DNA of 64,000 nucleotides, taken from the NCBI GenBank assembly GCA_016188215.1, contig JACPIF010000008.1, positions 101,439-165,438 of the forward strand, written 5' to 3'. The position numbers were made by a program, and so were the translations under genes. This document shows positions 17,891 through 37,787 of the stretch, piece by piece; the stretch's first letter is position 1, and the number at the start of each line of letters is the position of its first letter. Under the pieces are notes generated by a model. The model saw only the letters and a program-made list of their open reading frames with translations. It ran no database searches and had not been told where the DNA came from. The DNA comes from Candidatus Woesearchaeota archaeon (GTDB taxonomy: Archaea; Nanobdellota; Nanobdellia; Woesearchaeales; JACPIF01).

Positions 17891-18682
17891 TTATGGGAAC
17901 TCAAGGGCAAACCGGATCTTGTGCGCCTGCTCCACTATTTTGTTCTTTGCATCTGCTGTGATGAGCTTCTTGCCGGTATTGTAGCAGAATGTGTAAGTCT
18001 TCCGCTGGTACAGCTTTTCATCACATGTCTTGCCAATATCTCCTTTCCTGACTGCAAGTAGCGCTCCATCCTGGCCTTTCGCCATCCTGTAATTTAGGGT
18101 GCTGGAGAAGGATAGTGGGGCAACAAGCCTGGCATTATGGACTATGCCGGAATACTTTTGCTTATTTACCTCTGCAGTAATCTGGATATCATTTCCTGAC
18201 TGTGCAAGAGTAAACGTAGTGCCGCTAATGTGCTGATGGCCGCACTCGCAGTTCGTTGTCTGGCTTGAGGAGCAGTTGCTGACATAGTCCAGAAAATCCA
18301 TGAAGCTGCCTTGATCCCCCTCGTAGCAGCCTATTAATAACCGCTCTTGGGAATTTCCTGCTGCCTGCTCAACATTGTAGAGCAGCACCTCATTATTGAC
18401 GCAGGATTCCTTGCTTGATTCTGAGGAGCACTTATTGTAGATGCGGCTGAGGGCAGCCTCAATGCGGTCATACACATTCAGGTCATAATCCAATTCTACT
18501 GAGAAGGACGGGCGGATTGAGTAGGTGCCTACAACTATCCTGTCAGTAGATACTATGACCTCTGGCAGAGGACTAGATATGGCAGAGCCGGTAATCCCAC
18601 TGAAGTCGTAGAGCTCAAGCACAGCTGCCCCAGCTAGCAGGAGCACGGCAATCATCGGAATGAATAATATTTTTTTGTTCAT
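17891..18682 (-). CDS. secreted/membrane-anchored hypothetical protein (signal peptide), last gene of pilin-like operon
   Basis: MNKKILFIPMIAVLLLAGAAVL N-terminal signal; Cys-containing; no motif. Confidence 0.4.
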   Translation of the reverse strand: MNKKILFIPMIAVLLLAGAAVLELYDFSGITGSAISSPLPEVIVSTDRIVVGTYSIRPSFSVELDYDLNVYDRIEAALSRIYNKCSSESSKESCVNNEVLLYNVEQAAGNSQERLLIGCYEGDQGSFMDFLDYVSNCSSSQTTNCECGHQHISGTTFTLAQSGNDIQITAEVNKQKYSGIVHNARLVAPLSFSSTLNYRMAKGQDGALLAVRKGDIGKTCDEKLYQRKTYTFCYNTGKKLITADAKNKIVEQAHKIRFALEFP

Positions 18683-18683
18683 G

Positions 18684-19742
18684 TTACGTAATGATATATA
18701 GAGGCTTTACCTCAGCATTCATGCTCTTTGATTCCTCCTTTGCCCAGAGCGGCGTCCCGTATTCCCAGTGCCACCATTCATTTGCGAGATTGACAAAGCC
18801 TACGCTTGTCATAATTCTATTTAATTCTTTACGACAATCATTTATCTGAATACCGTTTGGATCCTTTGCATTATTGTAGTCATTGAGCATGCCCCTATAG
18901 CTGCTTACGGTTCCACAAGCCTGCCTTATACCTTTAAATTTTAGACGTACGTCTACAGCCCCACCAGTAAGATGTGCAGAAGATTCTGAAGCTGCTGCGA
19001 GAGGATTGCTGCATTTTCCTTCTCTTGTCTTTCCACCGCATAATTTTTCCTGCTCTTCCCTTGAGCGGTATGCGCTATTCACAATAAGCTCGTGACCTGC
19101 CTGCTGAGCCTCTTGCTGCGCCTTTTGCAACCTTTTATAGGCTTCCGGCTTCAATTTGCAGATATACTGCTGGCTTTCTGCAGCACAAGAGAACGGGATC
19201 ATATCAGGCAGGTCAGTTATTTCTGGTTCCTGTCTTATTGAAACTGTTGTTTTTGGCTCCAAGCTTAGATCTGATTGGAGCGCGCTCGTGGCAATGCCAA
19301 GAAATATGAGATGGCCTTTATTGACTACAGAATATTCATAATTCTCTGCCTTAATGGCTATATCCTTATTCTGATTCAATCTTTGATTAAAGGAGGTCAT
19401 GAATGTCTGCTTCAAAATAGTATCAATCTGCGTTTTAGCGGGCAAGCAAGATTTCTCTTTATACAAAATGGCATATGTTCCATATGCCTGGCATATGCCT
19501 AATCTCTCAGGAAGCTCCTTTAGTGCCAGCTGCACGCTAAAATGGGAGGCAGACTGTATGTAGGCAAGCTTCGTATATGCCTCATTCTCATTGCTATATA
19601 CAGATAGTGCAGCTTCCCCCACATATGTCAATTGAGGCTTGACCTCTGGAGCAGTTTTGGTTGCCTGCAATAATGCCCATGCAACTGAACCTATCCATGC
19701 GGCAAGTATCAGGTATATCATAATGCTTGATTTTTTATTCAT
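18684..19742 (-). CDS. secreted zinc D,D-peptidase, VanY / peptidase M15 family (LAS metallopeptidase fold)
   Basis: Signal peptide; C-terminal half has ELIVNSAYRSREEQ (SxHxxGxAxD-family first motif), HLTGGAVDV, and NEWWHWEYG (second His motif) in the order characteristic of VanY/M15B. Confidence 0.55.
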   Translation of the reverse strand: MNKKSSIMIYLILAAWIGSVAWALLQATKTAPEVKPQLTYVGEAALSVYSNENEAYTKLAYIQSASHFSVQLALKELPERLGICQAYGTYAILYKEKSCLPAKTQIDTILKQTFMTSFNQRLNQNKDIAIKAENYEYSVVNKGHLIFLGIATSALQSDLSLEPKTTVSIRQEPEITDLPDMIPFSCAAESQQYICKLKPEAYKRLQKAQQEAQQAGHELIVNSAYRSREEQEKLCGGKTREGKCSNPLAAASESSAHLTGGAVDVRLKFKGIRQACGTVSSYRGMLNDYNNAKDPNGIQINDCRKELNRIMTSVGFVNLANEWWHWEYGTPLWAKEESKSMNAEVKPLYIIT

Positions 19743-20236
19743 GGTAACATTAATGGTAATTCTGGAACATTAGCCTCTACAATATCTTTTCCTACTGATA
19801 GTGTCAATGTTAGAAGCTCTCCATTAGGAAGCGAAAGTGTAACAGATGAACTACTTTGTTTTCTAGCTGCGAATGCGTAACTTGGACCGTAAATTCCATA
19901 AGATTCATAACCACTCAACTTTAAGGACCATGTTGTATCACCTCTATAACGAGCATTAAAATAAGAGTTAACTGCCTTTTCAATAGCGCTATAATCTCTA
20001 GCGGCAATTCCTTTTGCAAAGATATCTATAATTTCTTGACCATCGCTTGAAGTGCTTACAAACTCAAGCAGCACTCTTGTGGCCTCAATTTCCTCCAGAG
20101 TTTGCTCTGCCTGGTTCTCCAGCTTTTCTTCCACACCTTTCCTGATTCCCACAAAAAGGATGAAGGAGAACGATATAAAGAAGATTGCAAAAATTATCTG
20201 CAGCCAATCGTCCATTATCGCTTTCTTATGAATCAT
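19739..20236 (-). CDS. membrane-anchored pilin-like protein (N-terminal KK + hydrophobic helix)
   Basis: MIHKKAIMDDWLQIIFAIFFISFSFILFVGI; ATGA overlaps with both neighbours. Confidence 0.35.
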   Translation of the reverse strand: MIHKKAIMDDWLQIIFAIFFISFSFILFVGIRKGVEEKLENQAEQTLEEIEATRVLLEFVSTSSDGQEIIDIFAKGIAARDYSAIEKAVNSYFNARYRGDTTWSLKLSGYESYGIYGPSYAFAARKQSSSSVTLSLPNGELLTLTLSVGKDIVEANVPELPLMLP

Positions 20237-20712
20237 TGTTCAATCTCAAACTGGAGCTTACCATCTACGAAATATCCTGACATGTAGATACTTACTTCCT
20301 TAGTCCTCTTACTAGCTGCGCTACCGCGCCAGTTCTTGCTGGTCAGAGCAGCTATCTGGCTTCCTTTAGCATCCTGTAATATAATTCGTATGGATTTTCC
20401 TTTGGTTTTGAAGTCTGCTGGATAGCAGCCATCCATAACACCCTGGGTAAATTTAGATGCATCTACCACACTTAGCCTGTACGTGAATTGGTCGGAAGTA
20501 TAAGCAAAACATTGCGGTGAGTTAATGAAACGCTCAGTCATGATAAAATTTCCCAGATCCTTAGGCGTAGCGAGGCTAAGGTTACTTATTGATACTACAA
20601 GATACATAAGCAAGGTAAGCAGGATAGTCAAAACAAACAATACTGCAACATAAAACATAATTTTATGCGCAAACATCTGGGCTTTATTTTGCCACAAGGG
20701 CTTTGAACTCAT
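20233..20712 (-). CDS. membrane-anchored small secreted protein, pilin-like
   Basis: N-terminal basic stretch then 25-aa hydrophobic helix; translationally coupled. Confidence 0.35.
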   Translation of the reverse strand: MSSKPLWQNKAQMFAHKIMFYVAVLFVLTILLTLLMYLVVSISNLSLATPKDLGNFIMTERFINSPQCFAYTSDQFTYRLSVVDASKFTQGVMDGCYPADFKTKGKSIRIILQDAKGSQIAALTSKNWRGSAASKRTKEVSIYMSGYFVDGKLQFEIEQ

Positions 20713-21593
20713 CTTTTAATCTCCTCCAGCGCCTTTATAACTGCTGCTGCAGCTTCTGCCGAATAAGGATAAGATTTATAGGAGTCACTTTTTATATTGC
20801 CTAATTCAAGGTATACTCCTTGGTTTTGCAAGGCAGCCCTAATGTCATCAGCAGGCATGCGGGCTGAGTCAATTGGAACAATATAATACCCATCTGCAGA
20901 AACCTTCTTTATCAATTGGTTAATGAGCGTGCACGCTACATAATACGATTTTGTGGAGTCATAAGGAATGTATGCCTTAATTAAATTTGGAGCCTTATCG
21001 TTATTGCTCATGCCTAGCATGATTACAAAATCACTGCTTGTTGCATCCAGCCTTGCTTGCACGTTTTGTATGCCTTTCGTGATTTTCTCTACTTCCTGCG
21101 CTTGCTCCCCCTGTATGTTGGATTTCCTGATTATTATTGAATTGAATTTATCCAAAGGGGGGATGCCGCAATAAATTGCATTCATAGAAGGAATATAGTC
21201 ACTTGCCTGCAGAATTGATCCCTGTTTTATAAGTGCAAGATAGGGTGGGTATTCAAACCTACTTTTTTGAAAGTTATAGCCGGCAGGCAAAGGTGCAAGA
21301 GGATATATTCCCTTAATAGGATCCCCTGCTGAGATTTCTACAGAATTAGAGCTTATAGTTACTATGTAATCATAGAGATTATCAAATTCAACATACGCAT
21401 TACCTTGTATCCCTGACAGGGCTTCCAGGGCCATTCCAATGTTATTTGCTATTCCCTGCTTAGAAGCGTATTCCCTGCCTACATACTGTTTTCCAAGCTC
21501 TATAAATAAATATCCTACCACAATTGCCAGGAGAATTTCAAGGATGGTTATGAGAGGATACTCTGTGCCTGTTTGAGCTTTTTTGTTTGCCAT
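20709..21593 (-). CDS. type IV pilin-like protein (class III signal peptide-like N-terminus)
   Basis: MANKKAQTGTEYPLITILEILLAIVVGYLFIELG: basic N-term, KAQ then Glu-containing hydrophobic helix. Confidence 0.4.
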   Translation of the reverse strand: MANKKAQTGTEYPLITILEILLAIVVGYLFIELGKQYVGREYASKQGIANNIGMALEALSGIQGNAYVEFDNLYDYIVTISSNSVEISAGDPIKGIYPLAPLPAGYNFQKSRFEYPPYLALIKQGSILQASDYIPSMNAIYCGIPPLDKFNSIIIRKSNIQGEQAQEVEKITKGIQNVQARLDATSSDFVIMLGMSNNDKAPNLIKAYIPYDSTKSYYVACTLINQLIKKVSADGYYIVPIDSARMPADDIRAALQNQGVYLELGNIKSDSYKSYPYSAEAAAAVIKALEEIKR

Positions 21594-21595
21594 GT

Positions 21596-22273
21596 CTAGT
21601 TATATGTCCCAGGCGGCAATATCTCGCAGTTGCTTGTTGTGCATACGCCAACCTTCCCGAGATCCTTTCGCACATATACTGCCTTTACATTCTGGTTAAT
21701 CTTGATGCCCGGGATATTATTAAAGTAAGCTGGCAGGGTCTCACTGCGCACAATAGCGAAGCCATTTTTCCAGAAGTAGCTTTGCATAAGGTTTTTGCTA
21801 GATCCTACTTGATCAGAGCGGCGCTCTGAGATAAGGGTGTAGCTGGTTATTGCCACTGTATTTAAGGCTCTGCACTCTGCTGCTGCAGTGCACCTGCTTT
21901 CTGAACCTATGCTTTCCCCTACTGAAAGCTCTGAGCAGAGGCAAATGCATGATTTCCCTTTCTGGCAGGTGCTAAGGCGCTCAACATATGTGAGCATTAA
22001 TTCCGCTCCGTTATATTCCTTATTGATAAGCTCCAGCCTTTGCGCGTCAGGAGAAAAGGCCAGGATTGCATTCTTATCTTTATCAAGGAAGAAGGCTAAC
22101 GGGTCCTGGGAACCTTCCTTTACTGATTCCATCTTCCCGATCATAGTTGTAAAAGAATTTGAAGTGCGAAAACTTACTGCAAATATATCATAAGCTATCT
22201 TGCCGACCATGACAAAGAGCAACACACCTATAACGACCAAAATAAATGTGATGGTGGCAAAGGCTCGTGGCAT
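21596..22273 (-). CDS. pilin-like membrane-anchored protein
   Basis: MPRAFATITFILVVIGVLLFVMVG N-terminus; Cys-rich C-terminal domain. Confidence 0.35.
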   Translation of the reverse strand: MPRAFATITFILVVIGVLLFVMVGKIAYDIFAVSFRTSNSFTTMIGKMESVKEGSQDPLAFFLDKDKNAILAFSPDAQRLELINKEYNGAELMLTYVERLSTCQKGKSCICLCSELSVGESIGSESRCTAAAECRALNTVAITSYTLISERRSDQVGSSKNLMQSYFWKNGFAIVRSETLPAYFNNIPGIKINQNVKAVYVRKDLGKVGVCTTSNCEILPPGTYN

Positions 22274-22276: not shown

Positions 22277-22600
22277 TCAAGAGATGCAGTTTGTCTTGGT
22301 AGGATCTTTTCTCATTGCATCTATGAGTTTTCTGCATTCATTGGAAGGTGTGCTGCAGCTTCCATCTGCATTTGGTTCCTTATTAGGGTTGCATGGGCAC
22401 CTATCAAGAACGTCTTGTATCCCGTCATTGTCGCAGTCTGAAGAGATACCGGTGGTAGTGTCGCTTAATGGTTTTGTGCCTTTTGCCCATAATTGGCCTG
22501 GCCCAAATACTGTATATCCGATTACCGCCATGGCAAGCAATCCGAGTCCCATCCAGACTATGATCCATATCATATCTGATGCTGCTTTCTTGTTGTGCAT
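22277..22600 (-). CDS. small pilin-like protein
   Basis: MHNKKAASDMIWIIVWMGLGLLAMAVIGY N-terminus; 107 aa with CDNDG..C..C Cys-rich tail. Confidence 0.35.
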   Translation of the reverse strand: MHNKKAASDMIWIIVWMGLGLLAMAVIGYTVFGPGQLWAKGTKPLSDTTTGISSDCDNDGIQDVLDRCPCNPNKEPNADGSCSTPSNECRKLIDAMRKDPTKTNCIS

Positions 22601-22727: not shown

Positions 22728-23516
22728 TTAGCATAGATTACCTGCACTTTTCCCCGCGAGCGCAGACATCATGTATGACTGTATGCCGATGTTGTAGGCA
22801 TTTGAAGGCAACCTAATTGTATCATAAGTCGGTATGAAGCAGATGTGACCCTCGTCTACATTAAAAAGCAGGCTATGATCCTTTAGTTCCCCCTTTATTA
22901 AGGAGACGCCTGATTTGTATTGCACATCAATCCTATCCCTTGCATAGGTAATTTTTGATGCCTCGGCATACCTATCCGCTGGATTGCTTATTGTATATTT
23001 TGAGACATCATAATTCCATTCCTTTTCCAAGCCAAAGCGCTTAATCAAATATGGAACCTGGGTATTGCCCGTTATCACACAAGGTGTTTTAATGGCTGCA
23101 GGGCTTCCAATAAAATGGCGCTTGACTTCTACATTGTTTGGGCCCACCAACACAATATACATGCCCTGCCTATTTTTGTCCGGTGAAGCCTGGAATACTA
23201 TTGAGAATCCCTGGAAATCAGCAGGCTTTGCAGGGTATGGCAACAAGCATTCCTTTGCGTATGTTCTACTGAAGATTATCAAAAAGTTGTTGTAGGCTGT
23301 GTTAACTTCCTCAGAAGGCACTGGCGTACTGACCTGCAAGTCCTTTTGCGGCCCTATGAATTCTATTGTAATAAAACTGAGGACAAAATTAAATGCGTAT
23401 TTGATGGCAGTGCCTATATTGATTCCCAAAACGTAGAGGGCAAATATGAAAAGAGCTAGAAGAACCAAGATTACTAAAAGGAAGCTCATACCTTTTTTGT
23501 GTTTCATGCAAACCAT
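22728..23516 (-). CDS. type IV pilin-like protein
   Basis: MVCMKHKKGMSFLLVILVLLALFIFALYVLG: KKG followed by hydrophobic helix. Confidence 0.4.
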   Translation of the reverse strand: MVCMKHKKGMSFLLVILVLLALFIFALYVLGINIGTAIKYAFNFVLSFITIEFIGPQKDLQVSTPVPSEEVNTAYNNFLIIFSRTYAKECLLPYPAKPADFQGFSIVFQASPDKNRQGMYIVLVGPNNVEVKRHFIGSPAAIKTPCVITGNTQVPYLIKRFGLEKEWNYDVSKYTISNPADRYAEASKITYARDRIDVQYKSGVSLIKGELKDHSLLFNVDEGHICFIPTYDTIRLPSNAYNIGIQSYMMSALAGKSAGNLC

Positions 23517-23659
23517 TCTAGTATAAAGTTTAATTTCCCACGTATAGCGAGATACCCTAAAGCAAAAACAATTATAACAGCGCCGGCTATTGCTAATCCT
23601 ACAACTGCATTTGGGATTATTTCTATGCCTTTTTTATTTAGCTTGGTATTACGCTGCAT
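23504..23659 (-). CDS. mini pilin-like protein (51 aa), class III signal peptide-like
   Basis: Hand-translated: MQRNTKLNKKGIEIIPNAVVGLAIAGAVIIVFALGYLAIRGKLNFILEWFA; NKKG/IEII nearly identical to N-terminus of the 23638..24876 product (NKKG/IELI); below 60-aa track cutoff; overlaps neighbours by 13 and 22 nt. Confidence 0.4.
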   Translation of the reverse strand: MQRNTKLNKKGIEIIPNAVVGLAIAGAVIIVFALGYLAIRGKLNFILEWFA

Positions 23660-24876
23660 AGTGGCTCGCCTCCGCCCTGCACTTGCTTATTTTCTATCTG
23701 TGACAGGCTAGTTAAATAGATTGTGGAAGCTGATCGAGCAGGATTAAAGAAATCGGCCAAACCAACATTAATAGTTTCAACTGCCTGTCCCGCAAACACT
23801 CCAGCTGTAATGCCAATTCCCCCTCCAATTACACCTATGGCAGTAGCTGTGATTGATAAAGGTAGGGTGATAGGCAGCGCAACAATTGCGATTCCAACTC
23901 CAACTGCTGCAGCGCCCCCAATCACAAAACCAGTTCCGATACTCAATGATTTGCAAAGGGTTGTATCGCAGGTATCAGCAGGGCTTCCAAAGCTAATTGC
24001 ATAAATTTCATTGGGCTTAATATCTGTAAGGATGAACACATTGCCAGGGCCGTTAGCTCGCTGGAAATATGTATAGTAGCTTAAGTCATTCTCCTTTTTG
24101 ATATAGCATGATTCCCCCTTTGGGCATTGCCAATTTGTATAGAGGGCGTAATCAAAACCGAGAGAGTCCTTGCTGCAGCGGCCGCCATTGTTGACGCATT
24201 GGATATTGCTAAAGCAACATCCTTCCCCTTTCTGGTCTTTTCTGCAAAAACTATTACGAAAATCAAATTGAATCTGGTCAGGGTTGCCCTGCATTTTATT
24301 AGGGCTAATGCAGTCAGCTTTGCTGTTGGCGCAAAATCCTCCCCTGTCTGTGCCTGAAGTAAAGCACCTGTCTGTCGTATCTTTTGGCTTAAAAGGGGTA
24401 GTTTGCAGGTAAAGCATGAATTCTTCAGGCGCAATCGGGCTTTTGATATCAGCATCCTGTTTTACAGTAAACAGATAGCAAGTCTGGCAGTTATTAATCC
24501 AAGGAGTCCCTTCCTTGAACACATCCCTGACCTTGCCCTCATCATACCTTTGCCAGCAGCTTTTCATCAATTCTGCTATGCCTCGCTCAACTGCTTCCCT
24601 GCTTTCACCTTTTTTTGGGATCTGGCCTTTATCAATGGTTACGCATCCAGCTAATGGAGCCCTGGCAGATACGGCCGTGACGCCTGCTATTTTTGACTGG
24701 ATCTCGTATCTTCTCAGCCCAATATTGATTTTGCAAGCTTCATCTTTAAGTGAGTCATCAAGGTTATACAGGATCTTTGGGAATATGGGCACAATAAGGA
24801 GCACCGCAATAAATATAATTACAAGGGCTGCAATCGCGCCAGTTATCAGCTCGATACCTTTTTTATTTATGGCCAT
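23638..24876 (-). CDS. large type IV pilin-like protein with Cys-rich domain and C-terminal Gly/Ala/Ile-rich hydrophobic region
   Basis: MAINKKGIELITGAIAALVIIFIAVLLIV (KKG then Glu at +2, pilin-like); 412 aa. Confidence 0.45.
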   Translation of the reverse strand: MAINKKGIELITGAIAALVIIFIAVLLIVPIFPKILYNLDDSLKDEACKINIGLRRYEIQSKIAGVTAVSARAPLAGCVTIDKGQIPKKGESREAVERGIAELMKSCWQRYDEGKVRDVFKEGTPWINNCQTCYLFTVKQDADIKSPIAPEEFMLYLQTTPFKPKDTTDRCFTSGTDRGGFCANSKADCISPNKMQGNPDQIQFDFRNSFCRKDQKGEGCCFSNIQCVNNGGRCSKDSLGFDYALYTNWQCPKGESCYIKKENDLSYYTYFQRANGPGNVFILTDIKPNEIYAISFGSPADTCDTTLCKSLSIGTGFVIGGAAAVGVGIAIVALPITLPLSITATAIGVIGGGIGITAGVFAGQAVETINVGLADFFNPARSASTIYLTSLSQIENKQVQGGGEPLCSVIPS

Positions 24877-25007: not shown

Positions 25008-25077
25008 GCTATAAATCTGAAAAACGCTTTATTTAAGCCTTTCTAATAGAATAATAGCGCAATAGGCTATATAGCTA

Positions 25078-28296: not shown

Positions 28297-31200
28297 CTAT
28301 CGCTTCTGCCTCTTCTTGATTATTGTGTCCAACTTGCTAAACGGATCTTGCTTTGCCGGTTTCTGCTGTTTGGCTTCTGCCTTGGAAGTCTTTTGCTCTT
28401 CCTTTCCCTTTGCAGGCTTTGCCTCTTCTACCTTCGCCTGCTTTTCAGGCTTCTCTTGACCTTTAGGCTTCGCCTGTGAAGAATCTGGCTGCGAGCCTCC
28501 GGTGAATATGTCCAATAACCCGGTGCGAGTCTTGAGCTTCTCTTTCATGCGAAGCTCAAAAAGCTTATGCTTGCTTGTAGCTTCAACTGGTTTCTCTGAT
28601 TTTCCTGTCTGCCTTGACTGCTGAACAGGAGATGAGGCTGAAGAAGGGGCAGTTGGGGTGTACTTATACGCAGATTTCGGCTTGCGGCGCAGCAACGTTT
28701 TGAGGTTTTGGCCATATTTCCTGTACCCCATGGCGAGGCCGCTGATAATCAGCAGAAGGGCAGCTGCATAGATAAGGTATGAGAAGAAATTTGAGCTTGG
28801 ATATGACTCGGGATCAAGCGGATCAGTGCCTGCGTCAAGCTCAACACTGTCTGAATATGCATCTGCGTCTGTATCCTCTCTATACGGATCTGTGCGCGCA
28901 CGCTGCTCTTCTATATTATTGAGCTGGTCGCTGTCAAAATCCTCCTCGCCATCGTTAACGCCGTTTCCATCTGAATCTGCAGCAAACTTGTCAAGATTAT
29001 GCAGGTCTTCCCATTCGTTCTGCAGGCCGTCGCCGTCAATATCATCATCGCAGGCATCACCGACTGCATCCTTGTCAAGATCCTCCTGCTCCTTATTTTC
29101 AGTTGAAGGGCAGTTATCCCTGCTGTCAGGTATGCCGTCGGCATCCTCATCTGGCTCCAGCTGCACACATTTCTGGTGAATGCAGTCGCTTTCCGGAGTG
29201 CAATCCTCTTTGATGTTGCACTGCCTTCCAGCAGAGCAACGCAGCGGGCAGTAGGTGCCGCAGTCTATATCACCCTCGCCCTGGTCAAGGATGCCGTTGC
29301 TGCATGGAGTAGGCTTCTTGCAGGAGCCAAACTCGCAGTTGCCTGAGATGCAGTCGCGGCTGCTGATGCATTGCCTGTCCAAAGCGCATTTTGTTGGGCA
29401 GGCGCTGCCGCAGTCTATGTCAGTCTCCTGGCCGTTCCTTGCGCCATCATTGCATGACTGTGTTTTGCATTGCTTGAGCTGGGGATCGCAGAATCCTGTC
29501 TCACAATCAGAATTGCCGCCGCATGTGGCATTTTCACCGCAGCCTACGCAGGAGCCTCCGCAGTCAAGGTCAGTCTCGTCATCGTCTTTTACCAGATTGC
29601 TGCAATGAGTCGGCTTTTTTGAGACATCAACTGTAATGCCGTCGCTTTCCATAGCTTTCCCAGTAATGCCGACAATGTTAGTTGCATCAACCCTGAAGAT
29701 GTACCTTGCCTTGTCAGTCAGGTTCAATGGCCTGCCGGAATTGTCTTTGTTTACGACAAGGAAATCCTTGTCAGGAGCTATGCTAGTGACGCTCTGGTTG
29801 ATTATAGTTTCCCGGGACGGCTGAACTGCTTCAAGGCTGTAGCGGTAATAGCTGATGCTGCTCTCATTCTCCTGCCCAAGCCATTTGACACGGAGGGAAT
29901 CAGTCAGGAAGGTGAATTCAGGATCATTCGGCAGTGCACTGGTGTCATTCACGTATAGCATGGCAGGAGGCGTAGCGTCAACAGTAAACTGAATCTGCAC
30001 GACGCTGGAAAACAGGCCGCCTACAATGCAGCGGGCGTAATACGTCTGTGGGATGCCAGGCGAGATGCCTGATACTGCGCGCTGGTGCCTATAAGCCAAA
30101 TCGCCAAACAGGTTTGTAATGGCTTCCTGCGCCTGGCCAAAATAGCATTGGGCGCGCTTGTTGGTTGAGATGTCAAGAATAACAGTACTTGAGTTGCTGT
30201 ACCTTGGCGTATTCACCTGGATGGCGAGGGGTGCGCTTAGGTTAATGGAAAACCTGATGGATGATGTATTGGAGAGGAGGCCTGCCTCGTTCTCGCAGGC
30301 AATGAAAAAGGTATAGCTTGGCTGGCCTGCCAATGCAGTATAGTTTTGGCTGTGTATCTTCTGATAAATATCTGGCGCAATGAATTCTTCATCCATCTCA
30401 GTGTAGCCCTTCTTTGCTGCATCATAACGGCACACTGTATTGTCATCGGTCTGCACCTTAAGCACAGTCCGCAGATCTGATTCTATAATAGGATCCGGCT
30501 GCGCAAACGCGGACAGGATAATGGGAGGTGTCTTGTCTATAGCTATCCTGAATGCTTTCTCGCGGATGCCCGAGAGGCCGTCATCACATTTCACATAGAG
30601 CTTATGCTCCTTCTGGTCTCCATCCGGGATTTCGTTGAAGTTTGTGATAGTATGTGAGATACCTCCAGTCACGGTGAAAGGCTTCATATTCTGGAAGACA
30701 ACGTTCTCAAGGTCAAGGACATACCTGCATGCTGCATCGTTGTCAGTGCCAACTGTAATATTAAAGATGGAATCCTTTGAAACGCCGGTTTTCGGCAGCA
30801 GCAGGGTAATGACGGTTGGAACTGCGTTCACCACAAAGCTGAAGCTGCCTGAAACTGTATTTCCTGCGTAATCGGATGCCTCAACCAGCACCTGTTTTGA
30901 GCCGTCGCTCAGGTTAATGGGGATGGCATAGCTGCGGTTGTCGTGCGTGCTTGACCTGTTTTTAATGTCCATCTCTCCATTAACCTGCACCTTGGCAAGA
31001 TCAACTTCCTTGGTAAAATTAAGGGTAATGACGACATTCGCATTCCTTAAGGTCGTGTTTATGGGGGATGCTGTGAATTGCGGCGGTGTATGGTCAACAG
31101 CCAGCACAAGCTTGAGCGGGCTTTTCATCAGCTTACCATAATTGTTCCTGGCCGAGAGCGTGAAATTATAAATCCCGTCAGGGAGCTCTGCATCAGGCAG

Positions 31201-31554
31201 GAACAAGTATTTTGAATTGTTTTCCAGCGGCTGCGTCGTGAAGGGAACAGTTGCATTTTCAGCGGCAAGGCCGGAAAAGGTAAGGATTGTGTAATCAGAG
31301 AATGTTACGTTGATCATGGGACGCTTGCTGTTGGTGAAGTATACCCCATCGGCAACCTTGCTGTTTGATACTGTAATGGCAAGCGGCACAGGGCCTGAGA
31401 CATTTGGCGATGCGTTAAAAGTAATGGTTTTTATGATGCCAAGGTTGTTAGCAGTTGACCAGGAGAAATGTCCCGGAAATGTTGAGCGGAAATGTTGAGC
31501 CATCGTTGCAGGCAGCAGCCAAATGGCAGAGATATGTGGTATAGCCTGAGCCAA
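28297..31554 (-). CDS. giant surface protein, C-terminal part: Ig-like/beta-rich region, Cys-rich repeats, thrombospondin type-3-like Ca-binding Asp repeats, TM anchor, Lys/Glu-rich cytoplasmic tail
   Basis: Repeats CxxGxxNGxETDIDCGxxC; DEDADGIPDSRDNCP...DKDAVGDACDDDIDGDG (TSP3-like DxDxDGxxDxxD); TM FFSYLIYAAALLLIISGLAMGY; tail KPKGQEKPEKQAKVEEAKPAKGKEEQK; real N-terminus is upstream ORF (no own signal peptide). Confidence 0.55.
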   Translation of the reverse strand: MAQAIPHISAIWLLPATMAQHFRSTFPGHFSWSTANNLGIIKTITFNASPNVSGPVPLAITVSNSKVADGVYFTNSKRPMINVTFSDYTILTFSGLAAENATVPFTTQPLENNSKYLFLPDAELPDGIYNFTLSARNNYGKLMKSPLKLVLAVDHTPPQFTASPINTTLRNANVVITLNFTKEVDLAKVQVNGEMDIKNRSSTHDNRSYAIPINLSDGSKQVLVEASDYAGNTVSGSFSFVVNAVPTVITLLLPKTGVSKDSIFNITVGTDNDAACRYVLDLENVVFQNMKPFTVTGGISHTITNFNEIPDGDQKEHKLYVKCDDGLSGIREKAFRIAIDKTPPIILSAFAQPDPIIESDLRTVLKVQTDDNTVCRYDAAKKGYTEMDEEFIAPDIYQKIHSQNYTALAGQPSYTFFIACENEAGLLSNTSSIRFSINLSAPLAIQVNTPRYSNSSTVILDISTNKRAQCYFGQAQEAITNLFGDLAYRHQRAVSGISPGIPQTYYARCIVGGLFSSVVQIQFTVDATPPAMLYVNDTSALPNDPEFTFLTDSLRVKWLGQENESSISYYRYSLEAVQPSRETIINQSVTSIAPDKDFLVVNKDNSGRPLNLTDKARYIFRVDATNIVGITGKAMESDGITVDVSKKPTHCSNLVKDDDETDLDCGGSCVGCGENATCGGNSDCETGFCDPQLKQCKTQSCNDGARNGQETDIDCGSACPTKCALDRQCISSRDCISGNCEFGSCKKPTPCSNGILDQGEGDIDCGTYCPLRCSAGRQCNIKEDCTPESDCIHQKCVQLEPDEDADGIPDSRDNCPSTENKEQEDLDKDAVGDACDDDIDGDGLQNEWEDLHNLDKFAADSDGNGVNDGEEDFDSDQLNNIEEQRARTDPYREDTDADAYSDSVELDAGTDPLDPESYPSSNFFSYLIYAAALLLIISGLAMGYRKYGQNLKTLLRRKPKSAYKYTPTAPSSASSPVQQSRQTGKSEKPVEATSKHKLFELRMKEKLKTRTGLLDIFTGGSQPDSSQAKPKGQEKPEKQAKVEEAKPAKGKEEQKTSKAEAKQQKPAKQDPFSKLDTIIKKRQKR

Positions 31555-33127
31555 CGCGGCGCGGCAGGCCTACCTTTTCAGTCTTGTCAGTTATGTCAAT
31601 AATGAATTGCGTCGGGATACCTTCCTCAAAACCAGTGGCTACTATCTGCGTGTCAGGGGCAAAATAATCAGACTCGCAGGCTGCTGAATTGCAGTCACGG
31701 TTCGGGCTGTAGTCTGCATTCTTGCTGCAGGCGCCGAACACTGAGCTGCATACACCGATGCGGCACTTGTCATTGCTCTTGCTGCTAAGTGTATTGGTTG
31801 TCGGGTCAAGGGCGACCGGAGCGAAGGTGAGGCATTCTTCATTTGTATAATCAGTGCACGTAACCTTCTCACAGCTCAGGCTCTCGCCATTCTTGAAGAA
31901 GCAGGGGTAGGCATCAGTGGAAAGGGCTGCTGACTTTTCAGCAGTGCAGGTGTCAAAAACTGCATTGTGCACCTTTACAGTAGGAGACCCCTGCGTCCCT
32001 TTCTCAATGCACCAGTTGCAATTTTCAGTGTCAAGGTTGACGCAGACTCCGACTCCGAGCGAAGAGATGGTATCCTTCCACGAGCACCTCCCTGTGTTGC
32101 AGTTGTCAGATTCGCAGGCTGCTTTTGTCTTATAATCATAGCAGTCCATGTTGGGGTTGCAGTTGTAGCAGGTATTCACGACTGTGGCAGACTTGTCATA
32201 AAAGCAGTACCTATAACTGGAAGCTGTCCCCTCGCATTTTGCCTTATCTGCAAACAGGCCGAATGGATTGTTGGAAAGGTTTGCGCAGTTCTGGTTCACG
32301 GCGCAGCGCGGCCCTGAAGCGTCAGCGATGCAGGTGCATGCCTGGCCGGTAAAGCAGTCCGAGGTGCCTGAATTGCAGTTTACTGAAGGGCTGCTCAGGA
32401 CATTGTTCTCATTGCAGGAATATGCTTTGTTGAACCTGGAAGAGAATAGGTTGATGACCTCATTGTTGAAATTACTCTGGGTAAACCCTTTCTTGGTGAT
32501 CAGATAAGCAGCATATTGGCTGTAATAGCTGCGCTGGATGCAGAAAGGGGTGTTTGCATTCCTATTAAAGCATTCCAAGCTGCCGATGGTTGTGTTAATG
32601 CTGAGTGATGAGCTCTTGTCCTGCGCCCTGAAATAGCCGGTTACCCTGTATGTGTATTCAGTGTCAAATAACAGCTCATCTGACTCGTCTGTGAAATAAT
32701 TGTTAGAGGTGGCTCCCAGGGTCTTGAAATTGCATATACGACTTTCGCAGCGCGAGATGTTATAGTATTCAGCTGCGCAGTCTGCTGACCAAACTAATGT
32801 AAGCTGGCGCTTGCCCTGCACAAATACCTTATCTATAGTTTTTATCTTTGGCGAAAATGTCTGCTGGTTGCAGTTGGGGGCGCTTAAGTTAAGCGATGGC
32901 GTGCCGCCGCCGCATACTTCAGGGCACAACTGCCGGCTGCCCGGTATAACAAACCGGAATGAGCATGATTCACGATTCACGAATGTGTTTGGGGAAGCTA
33001 CATTGCCGTTGCAGCAGCAGCCTGCATCGCCAGCGATAACAAATATGCTGGCTGCTATTAAACTTATGATTATTGAAAGCAGCAAAATCAGCGCTGGCAT
33101 CAGTATCTTTCTTGTTTTCCGAGACAT
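31448..33127 (-). CDS. giant Cys-rich surface protein, N-terminal part (signal peptide); reading frame continues into 28297..31554 if one copy of a 13-bp tandem duplication is removed
   Basis: MSRKTRKILMPALILLLSIIISLIAASIFVIAG signal; Cys-rich; C-terminal ...AACNDGSTFP joins in frame to ...GHFSWSTANN of the downstream ORF after deleting 13 nt. Confidence 0.6.
   Translation of the reverse strand: MSRKTRKILMPALILLLSIIISLIAASIFVIAGDAGCCCNGNVASPNTFVNRESCSFRFVIPGSRQLCPEVCGGGTPSLNLSAPNCNQQTFSPKIKTIDKVFVQGKRQLTLVWSADCAAEYYNISRCESRICNFKTLGATSNNYFTDESDELLFDTEYTYRVTGYFRAQDKSSSLSINTTIGSLECFNRNANTPFCIQRSYYSQYAAYLITKKGFTQSNFNNEVINLFSSRFNKAYSCNENNVLSSPSVNCNSGTSDCFTGQACTCIADASGPRCAVNQNCANLSNNPFGLFADKAKCEGTASSYRYCFYDKSATVVNTCYNCNPNMDCYDYKTKAACESDNCNTGRCSWKDTISSLGVGVCVNLDTENCNWCIEKGTQGSPTVKVHNAVFDTCTAEKSAALSTDAYPCFFKNGESLSCEKVTCTDYTNEECLTFAPVALDPTTNTLSSKSNDKCRIGVCSSVFGACSKNADYSPNRDCNSAACESDYFAPDTQIVATGFEEGIPTQFIIDITDKTEKVGLPRRVGSGYTTYLCHLAAACNDGSTFPLNISGTFLLVNC
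31474..31500. repeat. perfect 2x13-bp tandem duplication (GGAAATGTTGAGC) causing +1 frameshift inside the giant surface protein gene
   Basis: Read directly: tcccGGAAATGTTGAGCGGAAATGTTGAGCcatcg; 13 is not a multiple of 3; the two flanking ORFs are in frames differing by 1. Confidence 0.9.
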
Positions 33128-33151: not shown

Positions 33152-34423
33152 TTATCCATTCTTCTTAACCTTGCTTTTTTTGGCTGTTTGGAATTCAAGA
33201 TCCTGGTAATCAGATAGCAGGCCATCTGACACTGTTACAGTAAGATGCCACTTATCATTATAGTCAGGCACGTCTGCCTCACCTATGGTATAGGGGAGTG
33301 GCGGGTTGTACGAATAATTCAGGATGTCTTCATCCGGATCGTATGCAGGTCTTGTGTTCAGAGAAACAGGAGGACTTACAAAAATAGATTCTCCATCTCT
33401 CTCTACAATTAATGCAGCCGAACTATTGGATGAAATCAAGTCCCCTTCCTCCAATACAGGAAGGGTTTGTTCATTGATGGCATGAAGGGCTGGATACCTG
33501 TTCTGCACCGTGAAAGAAAATGTGTATGGTCTTGCATACAAGCTTGAGCGGGGGTCTGTTATGGTAACAACAGCGTCATTGCCGAACACATGCTTGGTAA
33601 GGGCAACTTCCATGTTTTCGTAGTTTACGGATTGGGTGCTGAAGACAATGGAAGAAGATTCCTGCTCAATGATAGTCCGCGCCAAATCATAGACCAGCCT
33701 GAGCCTGATCCTGAGCGGAACCGAGAAATCCTCCATAGTGGTGATCTCCTCGCCTGTTGGCTTGTATACAGTAATTGGAACTTTTGCATTGATTATTATG
33801 CCGCCTTTCACATAATTGTCAGAAATAATGCCGGCGGTTGAGATATTTCCCAAGGTAACATTATATTGCCTGAATTCCTTAAAAGTAAGGCAGGAGGCCG
33901 CATTGTTATTTATGTAATGCTCAATCTGCCTGAGCACTGAATCATTTGAGTTAAGGAGGGCAGGAAGCTGAATCGTGCCATAGTAGCCATGCTCAAGGTC
34001 AATAGATTCGTAATCTGCATCCTTATATGGAAATTCTGTCCATGGATAAGCTGGAGGCTGCCAGAAATATAGGTCGCCGATGTCTGTAACTGGGCGCCTG
34101 AGGCCATAGCTTATTTTACTGTTTGAGAATTGCACATAATCCTGGCCATTGATAATGGGGTCTGCAACCAGGCCGCCCTGTGAAGCATAGATAGCACCCT
34201 GCCTGCCTACAAGCTCAAGGGCTTTTGAAGACACATCTTCTATACACTTGTTAGTATACTCCCTGAGAGTCTCCAAACCGGTATCTAATGTTTCTATCTT
34301 CTCCTTTTCCAGTTTCTTTTCTGCCTTGAAAAGGATCAGATAGAGCAAGAAGATAATCATCGCAAATACAAGAATGCCAACAATGATGATTATAGTAAGC
34401 TGAGACTTATTATGCAAAGCCAT
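33152..34423 (-). CDS. type II membrane-anchored extracellular protein, hypothetical
   Basis: MALHNKSQLTIIIIVGILVFAMIIFLLYLILF N-terminal anchor, 423 aa, no motif. Confidence 0.4.
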   Translation of the reverse strand: MALHNKSQLTIIIIVGILVFAMIIFLLYLILFKAEKKLEKEKIETLDTGLETLREYTNKCIEDVSSKALELVGRQGAIYASQGGLVADPIINGQDYVQFSNSKISYGLRRPVTDIGDLYFWQPPAYPWTEFPYKDADYESIDLEHGYYGTIQLPALLNSNDSVLRQIEHYINNNAASCLTFKEFRQYNVTLGNISTAGIISDNYVKGGIIINAKVPITVYKPTGEEITTMEDFSVPLRIRLRLVYDLARTIIEQESSSIVFSTQSVNYENMEVALTKHVFGNDAVVTITDPRSSLYARPYTFSFTVQNRYPALHAINEQTLPVLEEGDLISSNSSAALIVERDGESIFVSPPVSLNTRPAYDPDEDILNYSYNPPLPYTIGEADVPDYNDKWHLTVTVSDGLLSDYQDLEFQTAKKSKVKKNG

Positions 34424-34556: not shown

Positions 34557-37253
34557 TTAGGCAGTGCTGTTTGCGGGGAGCTGCGGCCTCAGCTTTGAAG
34601 TAAGGTCCTGCCATACCTGGCTGCCTACCTGGTAGCGGCTGGAGACAAGAGTGGTTGCTCCAGACTCATCGCAGAAGAGGACATTTGCGCCTAAGGCCTG
34701 CTTGTTCATGGTTGTTACGATTGAGCAGATGCTTGCCTCTGGTTTCGTGTATTCTATGCTTACATATGAATCGCCGCCTACTGTCTCAATGACGCCTTTT
34801 ACTGACTTGTCGCCAGCACGGGTAATATACAGCCTGTTGAACTTTTTCACGTTATTCAAAAAAGTAAGGTCAACCTGGATTCCTTCAAAGGCTGGCTTTG
34901 CAGACAAGACTTTGCCGAAGAGCAGGGCAAAGGGCTGCTTGACAAGCTGTACAAATTTCTCAAGAAAATTGAGCTGAGGAGTAAGGCTAATGGGTGTCTG
35001 GCTTAAGATGACTGCCTTTTCCCTGTTGTCATACCAGACGATAGGGCTGCTGCACGCGTGGAACTGGCCGTCATTAACCAATGCGTTGTTGCAGAAGCTT
35101 GCAGGCAGGTCAAAGGTCTCAAGGATAGAAGGCTGCTTATTGATGACGGTGTTAAGGGTCGTGCCGAGCAGTACCTTGCTGCCTTGCCTGATGACGCAGA
35201 AATTGTTGGCGCAAGGCAATTGGGAACCATTTATGCTGCAGCTCGCTATGACATCTGTCTTGACGCTGAAGCCGCTAGGCAAGGAATATTCATAATTATT
35301 AAGCACGTTGGTGAATGTGTCGCAGTAAAGAGTGTAATCTGCGCCGCTGCTGATTTCTGCATTATCCAGCATAGCTATTGCAAGAAGCTTGGTGCGCGAG
35401 CTCCAGTTGCCGTCTTCACAGTAATTGTCGCCTATGTATTGCGTGTCGTTGATGCACTGGATATTGTTGTTGAGCGCCACCGAGAAATCCTGGGTGAAGT
35501 TTTCCAGCAATCCGTGCCTGCTGTTCTTGCTTCCAGGATTAACCAGGCATTGGCTCTTTTTGGGGCAGAAGCCTGTTGCGGTTTCGTCCCAGTTCTTCTT
35601 TACAGGAGATTCAGACCATTCGCCATTGATGCAGCGCTGGCCGTTGGTTGCGGTGCTTGATGCTGAGGTCGATTGATCGTTGAGGCACTTAAAGCCGTCC
35701 CAGCATTGCTCCTGAGTACAGCATTCAGTCTTCTGGGCAACTGCATTGTCCCAAGGAAATGTCTTCAAGGAATTCTTAAGCTCAGCAGACCTGTTCCATA
35801 TGCCTGCGGCTGAGCAGAATGCATGCTGGCCCTGCTGGAAGCCGTTTGGAAGGACTGTACAGAGCGGATTGCTGTGCACGAGCTGGGTACTTGTTATTGA
35901 ATCCCTTAGCGCAGCTATAGAGCCTGAATCAGTCTTGCACCCTTCAAACGTGCCATTAATGCTCATGACCTCTTTTTGAACAGGATTTGTGTTGCTTGTG
36001 ACATAATTTCTTGAGAATACTGGAATTCCGTTCCAGCAGGCTATTGTCCTGTTCGGCTCGTTGTAGTATTCACCAGAATCATCGCCGCAGCATCTTGTGC
36101 CTGTCCAAGTGTAGCTTTTTCCGCCTGAAACGCAGGATTCCTGGCTTGAATCGCCATCTTTCCATACACTGTTGTCGCAGTAGAAATTATTTGAAGTGTT
36201 TGACCAGGAGCCTGAGCTGAAGCAGTTGCTGTTAAAGCTGCAGTCTGTGCTGCTGGGGCAGCAGGATAAAGTGCCGTCAGCAAGATCGCCTTGAGCTGCG
36301 GTAATGTACTCGTCTGCATCATCGCCGCAGCAGGCATGCTCGGCCTCCTGCGGGCCGCCTATCTGCCATTCTGTGCCATCGCAAGAGCTGCACCATAATT
36401 CTGAGGTATCCAAGTTTACAGGATCAAAAGCGCAGCCGCCTGATGCACAGCTATAGTCGCGAGCGCTGCACACCCCGCCATTGCCGCATTGGCCATCGCA
36501 GGATGGCTGGCCTGAAACTACTGGCCTGTTCTCATTGGTTGAATCGTATGCGTTGCAGTCAACTGTCTTCTTTTCACTATCCTGGCCTGTGCAGCGGTAA
36601 GTAGTTAAAGTGGAGGTTGAGCAGGCACTTACCAAAGCGAGGTCCTCGCCGCACTTTCCAGTGTCAGAGCCTGAGGCAGTGCAGCCTTCATTATCAGTCA
36701 CAGTTACCTGGCCAAAATCATTGAACTGCGTCGGGCCGACGCAGTTGTCAGTGCCGCAGTTGCCCTGATCCTTGCCCTGAAAGCAGCCTCTGCTGCCCAC
36801 ACAGTACTTATCTGTTGATTTATCACAGCACCTCTTTGTGGTGTCCCAGAATGATTCTGCAATGCATGAGCATGCCTGATTTGAGTCATCTGGATTCCTT
36901 TGGCCGCTGCCTGCTGCAGTTGCAGGGACTGTGCATTTGCACTTTTCAGGGTTTCCCTCAATGCATGCCTGCTGGGAATAATAGATCTTGAATTCGTCTA
37001 TAGTCAATGTTCCAAAGGAAGAGAACTCGTCCCGCTGGTCATAGCAGCCCGGGCTATAGGTGAAACATGGAGGCGGGACCTGGCATTTTCCAGTGAGGCA
37101 TACTAAACCGGAATTGCAGCTTGTGCCGCTGCAGCAGTTCTCACCATTTCCGCCGCATGGCGGGGGAGGGGGAGGGGGGTTATTCTTGCCTATAACTATT
37201 GCGGAGGCCAGTACAATTATGAGCAAACTCAACCATATCCCTTTTGCTTTCAT
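34557..37253 (-). CDS. giant secreted Cys-rich protein (898 aa) with poly-Pro linker and repeated CCGDD...EY modules
   Basis: Signal peptide MKAKGIWLSLLIIVLASAIVIG, PPPPPPPP, >70 Cys, internal repeats CCGDDADEY / CCGDDSGEYY. Confidence 0.5.
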   Translation of the reverse strand: MKAKGIWLSLLIIVLASAIVIGKNNPPPPPPPCGGNGENCCSGTSCNSGLVCLTGKCQVPPPCFTYSPGCYDQRDEFSSFGTLTIDEFKIYYSQQACIEGNPEKCKCTVPATAAGSGQRNPDDSNQACSCIAESFWDTTKRCCDKSTDKYCVGSRGCFQGKDQGNCGTDNCVGPTQFNDFGQVTVTDNEGCTASGSDTGKCGEDLALVSACSTSTLTTYRCTGQDSEKKTVDCNAYDSTNENRPVVSGQPSCDGQCGNGGVCSARDYSCASGGCAFDPVNLDTSELWCSSCDGTEWQIGGPQEAEHACCGDDADEYITAAQGDLADGTLSCCPSSTDCSFNSNCFSSGSWSNTSNNFYCDNSVWKDGDSSQESCVSGGKSYTWTGTRCCGDDSGEYYNEPNRTIACWNGIPVFSRNYVTSNTNPVQKEVMSINGTFEGCKTDSGSIAALRDSITSTQLVHSNPLCTVLPNGFQQGQHAFCSAAGIWNRSAELKNSLKTFPWDNAVAQKTECCTQEQCWDGFKCLNDQSTSASSTATNGQRCINGEWSESPVKKNWDETATGFCPKKSQCLVNPGSKNSRHGLLENFTQDFSVALNNNIQCINDTQYIGDNYCEDGNWSSRTKLLAIAMLDNAEISSGADYTLYCDTFTNVLNNYEYSLPSGFSVKTDVIASCSINGSQLPCANNFCVIRQGSKVLLGTTLNTVINKQPSILETFDLPASFCNNALVNDGQFHACSSPIVWYDNREKAVILSQTPISLTPQLNFLEKFVQLVKQPFALLFGKVLSAKPAFEGIQVDLTFLNNVKKFNRLYITRAGDKSVKGVIETVGGDSYVSIEYTKPEASICSIVTTMNKQALGANVLFCDESGATTLVSSRYQVGSQVWQDLTSKLRPQLPANSTA

Positions 37254-37256
37254 TTT

Positions 37257-37787
37257 TTATGGCTCTACATTCATGTATATGCTTATATGTGAATAATTAT
37301 ACATTGAGTCTCCATAAGGGAAATCTATGTTTCTTACATAAGCTACAAACTTTGTACGGCCGATAAATCCGTCATTATGATAATATATGGGGAATAACCT
37401 AATCTCCTTAGGCTCTAAAATAAATTGCTCATAATCATATTCAAATAGCCCTGATTTTATAACATCAGCATTTTTGGAAGAATTGACCTCTTTGATGTCA
37501 ACACGCAGATTAACATTATTATCAAATTTATTTATGACGCCTATAAGAAATTCTTTCTTAATCCCGTTTTTGGCAACATACTCGTCCTGATCCAAATATA
37601 CCCTGTCATTTTCATGCCTTAGCTGCGATTTTATATAGGCTTTTTCTGTTTTAATATTTTCCAAGAAACATCCGCAATTTGGATACAGGTCAGTCAAGGA
37701 ATAAGAAAGTGCAAGCGAAAATAGAACAATTATAAGAATTATGAGAACAAACCTCAAACTAACCTTAATCACCGCTTTTTTGCACAT
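37257..37787 (-). CDS. small secreted/membrane-anchored protein, first gene of the minus-strand surface locus
   Basis: MCKKAVIKVSLRFVLIILIIVLFSLALSYS signal/anchor; 4-nt gap to downstream giant gene. Confidence 0.4.
   Translation of the reverse strand: MCKKAVIKVSLRFVLIILIIVLFSLALSYSLTDLYPNCGCFLENIKTEKAYIKSQLRHENDRVYLDQDEYVAKNGIKKEFLIGVINKFDNNVNLRVDIKEVNSSKNADVIKSGLFEYDYEQFILEPKEIRLFPIYYHNDGFIGRTKFVAYVRNIDFPYGDSMYNYSHISIYMNVEP

Follow-up and report, generated by a model that had tools for sequence, protein, structure and literature searches.

A conserved gene cluster of Woesearchaeota for pilin-like proteins, giant adhesin-like proteins and exchangeable murein hydrolases, a candidate apparatus for contact with bacteria

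By what means could Woesearchaeota hold on to a partner cell, and what kind of cell would the partner be? To our knowledge, all cultivated archaea of the DPANN group (Diapherotrites, Parvarchaeota, Aenigmarchaeota, Nanoarchaeota, Nanohaloarchaeota) have archaeal hosts, and we know of no host or attachment machinery described for the much more widespread Woesearchaeota. The question is raised by a 64,000-nt stretch of contig JACPIF010000008.1 of a tiny, uncultivated Candidatus Woesearchaeota archaeon (the window), in which 21 densely packed genes lie between positions 17891 and 37787, all on the minus strand (Table 1). An initial annotation, made from the sequence alone, had taken all of them to encode secreted or membrane proteins, and indeed a hydrophobic membrane or signal segment is found at the N-terminus of 21 of the 21 products. 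One of these, B360 (360 aa), is identical to NCBI HYV81_03830 of a Candidatus Woesearchaeota archaeon and is encoded on a 170-kb contig. Here we argue, with a probability of roughly 0.55, that the locus comprises the genes for the structural parts and the effectors of a type IV filament-like contact apparatus that is aimed at bacterial cell walls and specific to Woesearchaeota/Nanoarchaeia.

The same genes, including open reading frames (ORFs) of 37, 46 and 51 aa, are called in independent Logan assemblies of the same population, which bears out the three mini-ORFs of 36-51 aa listed originally; agreement of the independent gene calls, together with the orthologues, rules out ORF artefacts. 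The four-nucleotide ATGA overlaps, on the other hand, do not run through most of the array as had been supposed. They occur at 7 of the 20 junctions, and the spacing at the rest is -1, -10, -22 or a short gap. Five longer gaps, upstream of K176, H423, P95, s46 and U107, contain TATA-like boxes, suggesting that the locus is organized in about five transcription units. Since the flanking genes encode archaeal RadA, RPA, ribosomal protein S2, MCM, PolD, Cdc6 and TBP, the locus is chromosomal; a mobile element or a virus is ruled out by the RadA, RPA, MCM and PolD flanks.

Relatives were searched for in species-representative genomes with a pattern derived from a B360 alignment. Of the 198 matches obtained, 80 loci were inspected, and the families of the window were mapped onto them by iterated profile searches. 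The B360 relatives are labelled Woesearchaeota, Nanoarchaeia or Nanoarchaeota, many of them with a placeholder "Methanosarcinales" label that is taken to be wrong. The recurrent order of genes is [giant], H423, [giant], A174, B360, C158, D173, [one to three P95-like genes], S412, T262, U107, V225, W294, X159, Y165 and [M15/Z]. A174, B360, C158 and D173 are contiguous in 58 of the 80 loci, the complete order of the window is kept in 12, and all but one of 746 family genes are co-oriented (745/746). Absent members mostly correspond to contig ends, and linkage of the giant adhesin genes to the cluster holds throughout. What the locus represents is a system conserved across the whole lineage. The initial annotation had left undecided whether it was conserved or strain-variable; conservation of the cluster rules out a strain-variable island.

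The most characteristic feature of the products is the N-terminal signal. In 16-18 of the 21, [KR]-[GAS] stands directly ahead of the hydrophobic helix; D173 has H-A in its place, and the M15 protein has K-S. At least 13 class III-like N-termini had been counted originally. Common to about 17 non-giant products and their orthologues are a leader that is short and basic, [KR][GAS], in many cases Gln at position +1, and the hydrophobic helix thereafter. Across the 80 loci, [KR][GAS] precedes the helix in 669 of 713 proteins of the cluster families (94%) against 63 of 161 other proteins with an N-terminal transmembrane (TM) segment in the flanks (39%). For [KR][GAS]Q the figures are 381/713 (53%) and 8/161 (5%), and those eight lie inside clusters. 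The motif is enriched far above chance and is specific to the cluster.

Individual families keep their own versions of it. The B360 family has K[GA]-x-I-E-I-Q-F-N-W-I-F with invariant Q, N, W and I, and the D173 family K[AGS]/Q-M-E-I-M-G-L (the slash marks the predicted cut) with invariant Q, E and G; Glu is found at +3 in both. The consensus is KAQIQMxETI in the C158 family, K[AGS]QIYSQIFIYIL in the A174 family and KSQIT in the H423 family. Conservation is higher in the 30 residues past the predicted cut than in the remainder of the protein (0.72 versus 0.49, and 0.61-0.73 versus about 0.50). Profile-profile alignment (hhalign) puts the motifs of different families in register, with P95 aligned to S412 at 94%, to A174 at 90% and to T262 at 89%. 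The giants of the same clusters, for which a class III-like signal had also been assumed, carry ordinary signals of the Sec type, behind which stands a GCC[TI]NPGAG motif. Ordinary Sec signals are thus present within the cluster, which makes the [KR][GAS] motif a signal of its own rather than a habit of the lineage.

The candidate major subunit is P95, a family of small proteins (mature length approximately 86 aa) with six cysteines ending in CC. Its N-terminus is very uniform, K-[AGS]/Q-[GS]-[IL]-S-[ILM]-N-x-I-I-[IV]-A-A-[IL]-A-L. Gln occupies +1 in 90 of 104 members, and at -1 there are 43 members with A, 34 with G and 27 with S. There are one to three tandem copies per cluster; in the window the second copy is q37, reduced to the leader and the helix. 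In a library of 1.84 billion proteins 1957 representatives were related to P95 at E <= 1e-3. The median spacing of the cysteines in the head is C-x6-C-x5-C-x11-C-x12-CC. The head also has sub-threshold matches to defensins, namely AtDEF-like in 17 of 75 members (best E 2.7e-6; one member that was checked scored 20.6 bits, below the cut-off of 25) and Defensin_beta in 6 of 75, and weakly matches crotamine in the PDB.

The clearest indication of function comes from the last gene family (Z), whose members have a shared N-terminal carrier domain of about 190 aa followed by a swappable hydrolase module that starts at residue 190-250 or so. In the window the module is M15, and the VanY/M15 peptidase of the initial annotation is confirmed above the Pfam thresholds (VanY 34.5 bits, cut-off 25; Peptidase_M15 34.4 bits, cut-off 27). 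The motifs SxHxxGxAxD (H257, D264) and ExxH (E322, H325) are intact, and they are kept in 10 of 10 domain-carrying orthologues. The domain scores best against DdpX/VanX-type dipeptidases, DdpX with E 2.8e-15, which is below the equivalog cut-off; the module is predicted to be a VanX/DdpX/VanY-like zinc D-Ala-D-Ala peptidase. A word-indexed search with the M15 protein found only three relatives. Among the 42 members of the Z family, VanY/M15 modules were recognized in 11 (best E 4.9e-11 for VanY and 4.1e-12 for Peptidase_M15), M23 in two (5e-18), SLT in two (1.5e-13), 3D in two (6.2e-07), and Glucosaminidase (1.3e-15), M15_3 (1.8e-11) and C39_2 (1.2e-09) in one each. At least one murein hydrolase module is present in at least 17 of the 29 loci where the Z gene is visible, and M15 itself in about 10 of the 29 clusters, meaning that it is an accessory module and not a part of the core. 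Several unrelated enzyme classes, each assigned by its domain match to a Pfam family made up mainly of peptidoglycan hydrolases, occupy one position, which is the strongest functional clue of the locus. The architecture is that of a pilin-type N-terminal module, here a putative pilin, with an unrelated functional domain behind it. In one relative a second cluster gene (L077, 14926-16416; 496 aa, KKKAQ leader) has a 3D-like murein-lytic domain, so hydrolase modules are not confined to the last gene.

The largest product is a type I membrane protein with adhesin-like features. It consists of a Sec signal, a Cys-rich N-terminal region, a Big_13 immunoglobulin (Ig)-like domain, three Cys modules of the CGG type, calcium-binding TSP3 repeats and, at the C-terminus, a TM segment with a Lys/Glu-rich cytoplasmic tail. 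The TSP3-like repeats, the Cys-rich modules, the TM anchor and the Lys/Glu-rich tail had been read from the sequence initially, and the size had been put at about 1600 aa. What had been taken for a frameshift, however, is a gap of 83 nt at approximately 31454/31455 plus a 3-nt indel relative to the Logan assemblies, in which the gene is intact (three of these encode 1638 aa and another one 1629 aa). An error of assembly, or else a deletion carried by a minority, is the probable cause of the 83-nt loss. Orthologues range from split pairs to proteins of 3148 aa, and the C-terminal anchor and tail are often shared. In some species (L019, L045, L044, L010 and others) the protein is divided into a Cys-rich/Ig part of about 2000 aa and a TSP3/TM part of about 1050 aa, and in L040, L070 and L084 it is fused, up to 3148 aa; the N-terminal half of the split giant of L019 has a KRGQ pilin-like leader. 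An orthologue of about 900 aa of the 898-aa surface protein stands at the matching position in relatives; no Pfam match was obtained for the 898-aa protein, and no C-terminal TM segment was noted in its sequence, which was read by eye and not computed. The initial annotation allowed that the locus might prove to be a characterised S-layer or adhesin island. Searches for homology to S-layer proteins and adhesin operons matched no S-layer family, and the giants matched only generic Big_13, TSP3, CarboxypepD_reg and Glucodextran_B repeats.

In the contact apparatus that we propose, about 17 proteins would be inserted with the N-terminus inside the cell, and an EppA/PibD-like prepilin-type peptidase, encoded elsewhere, probably cuts them after [KR][GAS]. 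The body of the structure, a thin filament or a pseudopilus, would be polymerised from the P95-type proteins, while the always-adjacent quartet from A174 to D173 and the other larger pilin-like proteins may serve as minor, priming or tip subunits. The Sec-exported giants, held by their C-terminal helix, would provide adhesion. The Z carrier would present the swappable murein hydrolase, leading to local opening of the peptidoglycan of a partner or prey at the site of contact. Action on a bacterial wall had been guessed from the M15 gene in an archaeon presumed to be without murein, and the guess gains weight from the interchangeable murein hydrolases at the same position in relatives. More tentatively, Woesearchaeales may build a pilus-like contact organelle that has carriers for interchangeable murein hydrolases among its subunits. 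In a bolder version, the structure would assemble with none of the canonical type IV pilus components, the ATPase, the platform protein and the peptidase.

Several results weigh against a filament of this kind. The resemblance to pilins is not picked up by existing models, as neither the window proteins nor 75 members of the P95 family match Pfam Class_IIIsignal, Pilin_N or an NCBIfam pilin family; the sole hints are sub-threshold, UpsA in one homologue (E = 0.0075) and Flp1_like in 2 of 75 members (E = 0.0017). In P95 the Glu at +5 is not conserved, and Asn is found at +6 instead. Profiles of B360, D173 and P95 retrieved no solved pilin from the PDB, and when the PDB was searched with M15, B360, D173 and P95, by single sequence and by profile, nothing but TM-helix or Cys-rich noise came back. 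As the initial annotation had stated for the window, genes for an assembly ATPase, a platform protein and a prepilin peptidase are missing: none of the T2SSE-type ATPase, platform protein and A24 peptidase was found in the 64 kb, in 10 kb past the upstream edge or within 10 kb of the cluster in the 80 loci. A regular-expression and P-loop scan of the window and approximately 1.4 Mb of related loci likewise revealed no T2SSE ATPase. Type IV pilus components are also said, in a paper on the source site, to be missing in DPANN genomes (10.1101/2020.05.14.094862). Separate loci for pilins and machinery are normal in archaea (PMC4858521; PMC3875500), and therefore absence of the machinery nearby is not decisive.

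Structure prediction gave two good models, both with long N-terminal helices followed by beta-sheet domains. The AlphaFold2 model of B360 has a helix (residues 10-65), a beta domain and a C-terminal three-helix bundle. In that of D173 (predicted local distance difference test score 79.8) the N-terminal helix is broken into two (12-41 and 46-67), and a four-stranded antiparallel sheet lies at the C-terminus. Fold searches with the two models retrieved no pilins, and Foldseek with D173 found nothing significant. The D173 model is compatible with a pilin, yet its closest likeness appears to be to PDC/Cache-like sensor domains.

That no pilin model or fold was recovered and no assembly machinery is nearby would also suit a non-filamentous envelope complex, in which uncleaved signal-anchor proteins pack their helices through polar Q, E, N and W residues into a surface layer or pore, with neither a pilus nor a prepilin peptidase. 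The additional C-terminal TM segments in S412 and the giants point the same way, and the three positionally conserved single-TM micro-proteins resemble subunits of a complex. However, only G, A or S immediately before the helix, K or R at -2 and frequent Gln at +1 across divergent orthologues are what is expected of a peptidase site and are needless for anchors, and other exported proteins of the same cluster carry standard Sec signals. We therefore consider such a complex unlikely.

If, instead, the filament were a short pseudopilus for secretion or display of the hydrolases and adhesins, comparable to type II secretion systems or to the bindosome of Sulfolobus, its purpose could be scavenging of dead bacterial biomass or competition and not attachment to a live host. 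Many minor-pilin-like genes beside a small major subunit would agree with this. Moreover, bacteria-killing peptidoglycan hydrolases have been documented in archaea and figure prominently in Nanoarchaeota (PMC12352652), and murein-degrading Woesearchaeota have been proposed to be "vampiristic" (PMC9723730). The hydrolases, however, share the anchor or pilin-type signal of the structural proteins and would for this reason stay cell-associated rather than be released, the giant adhesin genes are always cluster-linked, and no secretion ATPase is nearby, which leaves this explanation quite improbable. A system for the archaeon's own envelope biogenesis or cell division, with hydrolases remodelling a murein-like polymer of its own making, is hardly credible. 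It would account for the housekeeping-like conservation among replication genes and for the glycan-synthesis cluster and UDP-N-acetylglucosamine genes nearby. Still, Mur-type genes were not encountered in the window, and it is unlike a dedicated autolysin that hydrolase classes are swapped between species and that about 40% of the visible clusters lack a recognisable module. Surveys, in addition, take the peptidoglycan-degrading domains of these lineages as directed at bacteria (PMC8204110).

Table 1. Genes of the locus, listed from the start of the block, and neighbouring genes of the window (coordinates in the window; a slash in an N-terminal motif marks the predicted cut).
Gene or product	Coordinates	Strand	Features
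K176	37257..37787	-	first gene of block, 176 aa; K-A + TM N-terminus; close relatives only; TATA-like boxes upstream
898-aa Cys-rich surface protein	34557..37253	-	KAKG + TM, then poly-Pro linker
H423	33152..34423	-	423 aa; K-S-Q-L N-terminus + TM; 27/80 loci; own TATA-like box
Giant adhesin-like type I membrane protein	28297..33127	-	1638 aa intact; broken in window
A174 (170 aa in other calls)	27744..28256	-	core pilin-like; R-K-A/Q-V-I-G-E; 68/80 loci
B360	26665..27747	-	core; K-R-K-G/F-V-E-I-Q-F-N-W-I-F; invariant Q16, N18, W19, I20
C158	26189..26665	-	core pilin-like; P-R-A/Q-L-K-M-A-E-T; 74/80 loci
D173	25671..26192	-	core pilin-like; 6 Cys conserved in family
P95	25185..25472	-	small six-cysteine protein, candidate major subunit; own TATA-like promoter
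q37	25075..25188	-	truncated P95 paralogue, leader + helix only (E 1e-7 to P95)
s46	24867..25007	-	micro-protein with a single TM segment; leader K-K-G-E; immediately upstream of S412
S412	23638..24876	-	N-K-K-G/I-E-L-I; Cys-rich ectodomain; Gly-rich C-terminal TM region; 53/80 loci
s51	23504..23659	-	single-TM micro-protein, N-K-K-G/I-E-I-I, just downstream of S412
T262 (259 aa in other calls)	22728..23507	-	pilin-like N-terminus H-K-K-G/M-S
U107	22277..22600	-	N-K-K-A/A-S; one TSP3-like Asp-rich repeat, below Pfam cut-off
V225	21596..22273	-	P-R-A/F-A + TM
W294	20709..21593	-	N-K-K-A/Q-T-G-T-E
X159	20233..20712	-	Q-N-K-A/Q-M
Y165	19739..20236	-	H-K-K-A/I-M-D-D
Carrier domain + predicted M15 zinc D-Ala-D-Ala peptidase module	18684..19742	-	carrier 1 to ~190 (KK[GAS] + TM); M15 ~190-330
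Gene at end of block	17891..18655	-	
HTH_20/S_layer_C protein	1140-2063	+	307 aa; ArsR-type HTH_20 and Pfam S_layer_C match (E 8e-12), an odd pairing
PMT_2 mannosyltransferase-like protein	4539-5867	+	probable glycan cluster
GT2 glycosyltransferase	6537-7775	-	probable glycan cluster
11-TM protein	7772-9220	-	probable glycan cluster; ~480-500 aa; no Pfam match
11-TM protein	9217-10719	-	probable glycan cluster; ~480-500 aa; no Pfam match
Polysacc_synt_3 flippase	11420-12757	-	probable glycan cluster
Transporter/spermidine synthase	38209-39816	+	major facilitator superfamily transporter domain fused to spermidine synthase

Some further features of the genes can be added. S412 is present in one or two copies in relatives, and in divergent ones (L007-L046) single-TM micro-proteins of 37-65 aa stand on both sides of it, their position being kept and their similarity undetectable. 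The globular part of Y165 is related to that of D173 (hhalign 87%). In L022 five genes are inserted between A174 and B360 (3359-9889); by reading of the sequence they are four shikimate-pathway-like genes (5-enolpyruvylshikimate-3-phosphate synthase, shikimate kinase, chorismate synthase and dehydroquinase/shikimate dehydrogenase-like) and an unknown 552-aa protein, and the insert was rejected as the assembly machinery on account of these shikimate-pathway genes. At 5 kb from the locus, positions 4539-12757 form a probable surface-glycan cluster. The 10-kb extensions past the ends of the window contain sugar-nucleotide and housekeeping genes only, with GlmS, a GlmU-like gene and phosphoglucomutase just beyond its start (L091). 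Next to the transporter/spermidine synthase gene an S-adenosylmethionine decarboxylase gene adjoins in Logan contig L087.

The cluster points to bacteria as partners of these archaea. If Woesearchaeales do build a contact organelle of the kind proposed, these very abundant DPANN archaea would be episymbionts or predators of bacteria, a relationship across domains, and the class of hydrolase could be a determinant of host range. What the cluster offers is a concrete and testable set of genes, shared throughout the lineage, for pilin-like subunits, giant adhesins and swappable peptidoglycan hydrolases. The hydrolases can be expressed for tests on defined cell walls, and P95, a small and presumably abundant subunit, is a target for metaproteomes and cryo-electron tomography. 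Approximately 15 protein families that current pilin models miss are added as well.

In the literature searched, no paper links Woesearchaeota or Pacearchaeota to pilins and none describes the cluster, so the system can still be called undescribed, as it was at first. Giant SLT-domain proteins and lineage-specific "module 98" families have been reported from Woesearchaeota and Pacearchaeota, with murein-degrading domains taken as a sign of bacterial hosts, and that account does not mention pilins, the gene cluster or exchange of hydrolase modules (PMC8204110). Our families come from the same lineages and are likewise unannotated and lineage-specific, but the giants of the cluster differ in having no SLT domain, which is absent from the giants of the relatives tested. 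Predatory lifestyles were proposed earlier (PMC9723730; PMC12352652). Two accounts describe episymbiotic Saccharibacteria of the Candidate Phyla Radiation (CPR) as ultra-small and as using pili to find and bind the bacterial host (PMC9894109; PMC11623550). Their appendages are bacterial type IV pili with recognisable PilB, PilC and PilD, whereas the organism of the window is an archaeon in which no machinery was identified.

Lytic enzymes inside the operon of a surface machine are familiar from FlgJ, VirB1 and phage tails, where the class of enzyme varies and local opening of the wall is constant; enzymes of the FlgJ/VirB1 type cut the wall of the producer itself and those of phages cut the wall of the host. 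The cluster similarly has its lytic enzyme gene within what would be a surface-machine operon, with the difference that the target would be another cell, since the producer is an archaeon presumed to be without murein. The minor-pilin tip complexes GspH-I-J-K and FimU-PilVWX-PilY1, which work with a large adhesin, provide another analogy. Here, too, a quartet of pilin-like genes, always next to each other, lies ahead of the candidate major subunit, one of them is large with an extra helical domain (B360), and large calcium-binding adhesins are linked to them, although no similarity in sequence or fold to these complexes was detected.

Closer parallels are found among archaeal pili. The EppA-dependent pilins of Methanococcus are small subunits of 60-75 aa in which a leader of 5-13 aa has Gly at -1 and is followed by Gln at +1, and their genes are scattered over at least four loci, with the ATPase elsewhere (PMC3875500). 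The short basic leader, the small residue at -1 and the Gln at +1 are alike in the Epd pili, or archaeal type IV filament (TFF) system 1, of Methanococcus maripaludis (PMC3875500; 10.64898/2026.04.22.720090), as are the very small major subunit and the many minor pilin-like genes in one operon. A separate locus for the ATPase and platform genes is a further likeness, presumed for the system of the window, near which these genes were not found. The differences are that there is no DUF361/Class_IIIsignal match, that A or S is as frequent at -1 as G, that the small subunit has a six-cysteine head and no conserved Glu at +5, and that the cluster has no EppA gene and adds giant adhesins and murein hydrolases. 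The modular type IV pilins PilB and PilC of Streptococcus sanguinis share with the Z family a class III-type carrier fused to an exchangeable effector in many architectures (PMC8179133). The carrier of the window is, however, an uncharacterised archaeal domain of about 190 aa and not of the IPR012902 type, its effectors are predicted murein hydrolases instead of lectin or vWA domains, and its incorporation into a pilus is conjectural. By analogy, the system of the window may work most like the Epd/TFF system 1 pili combined with the principle of the modular pilin.

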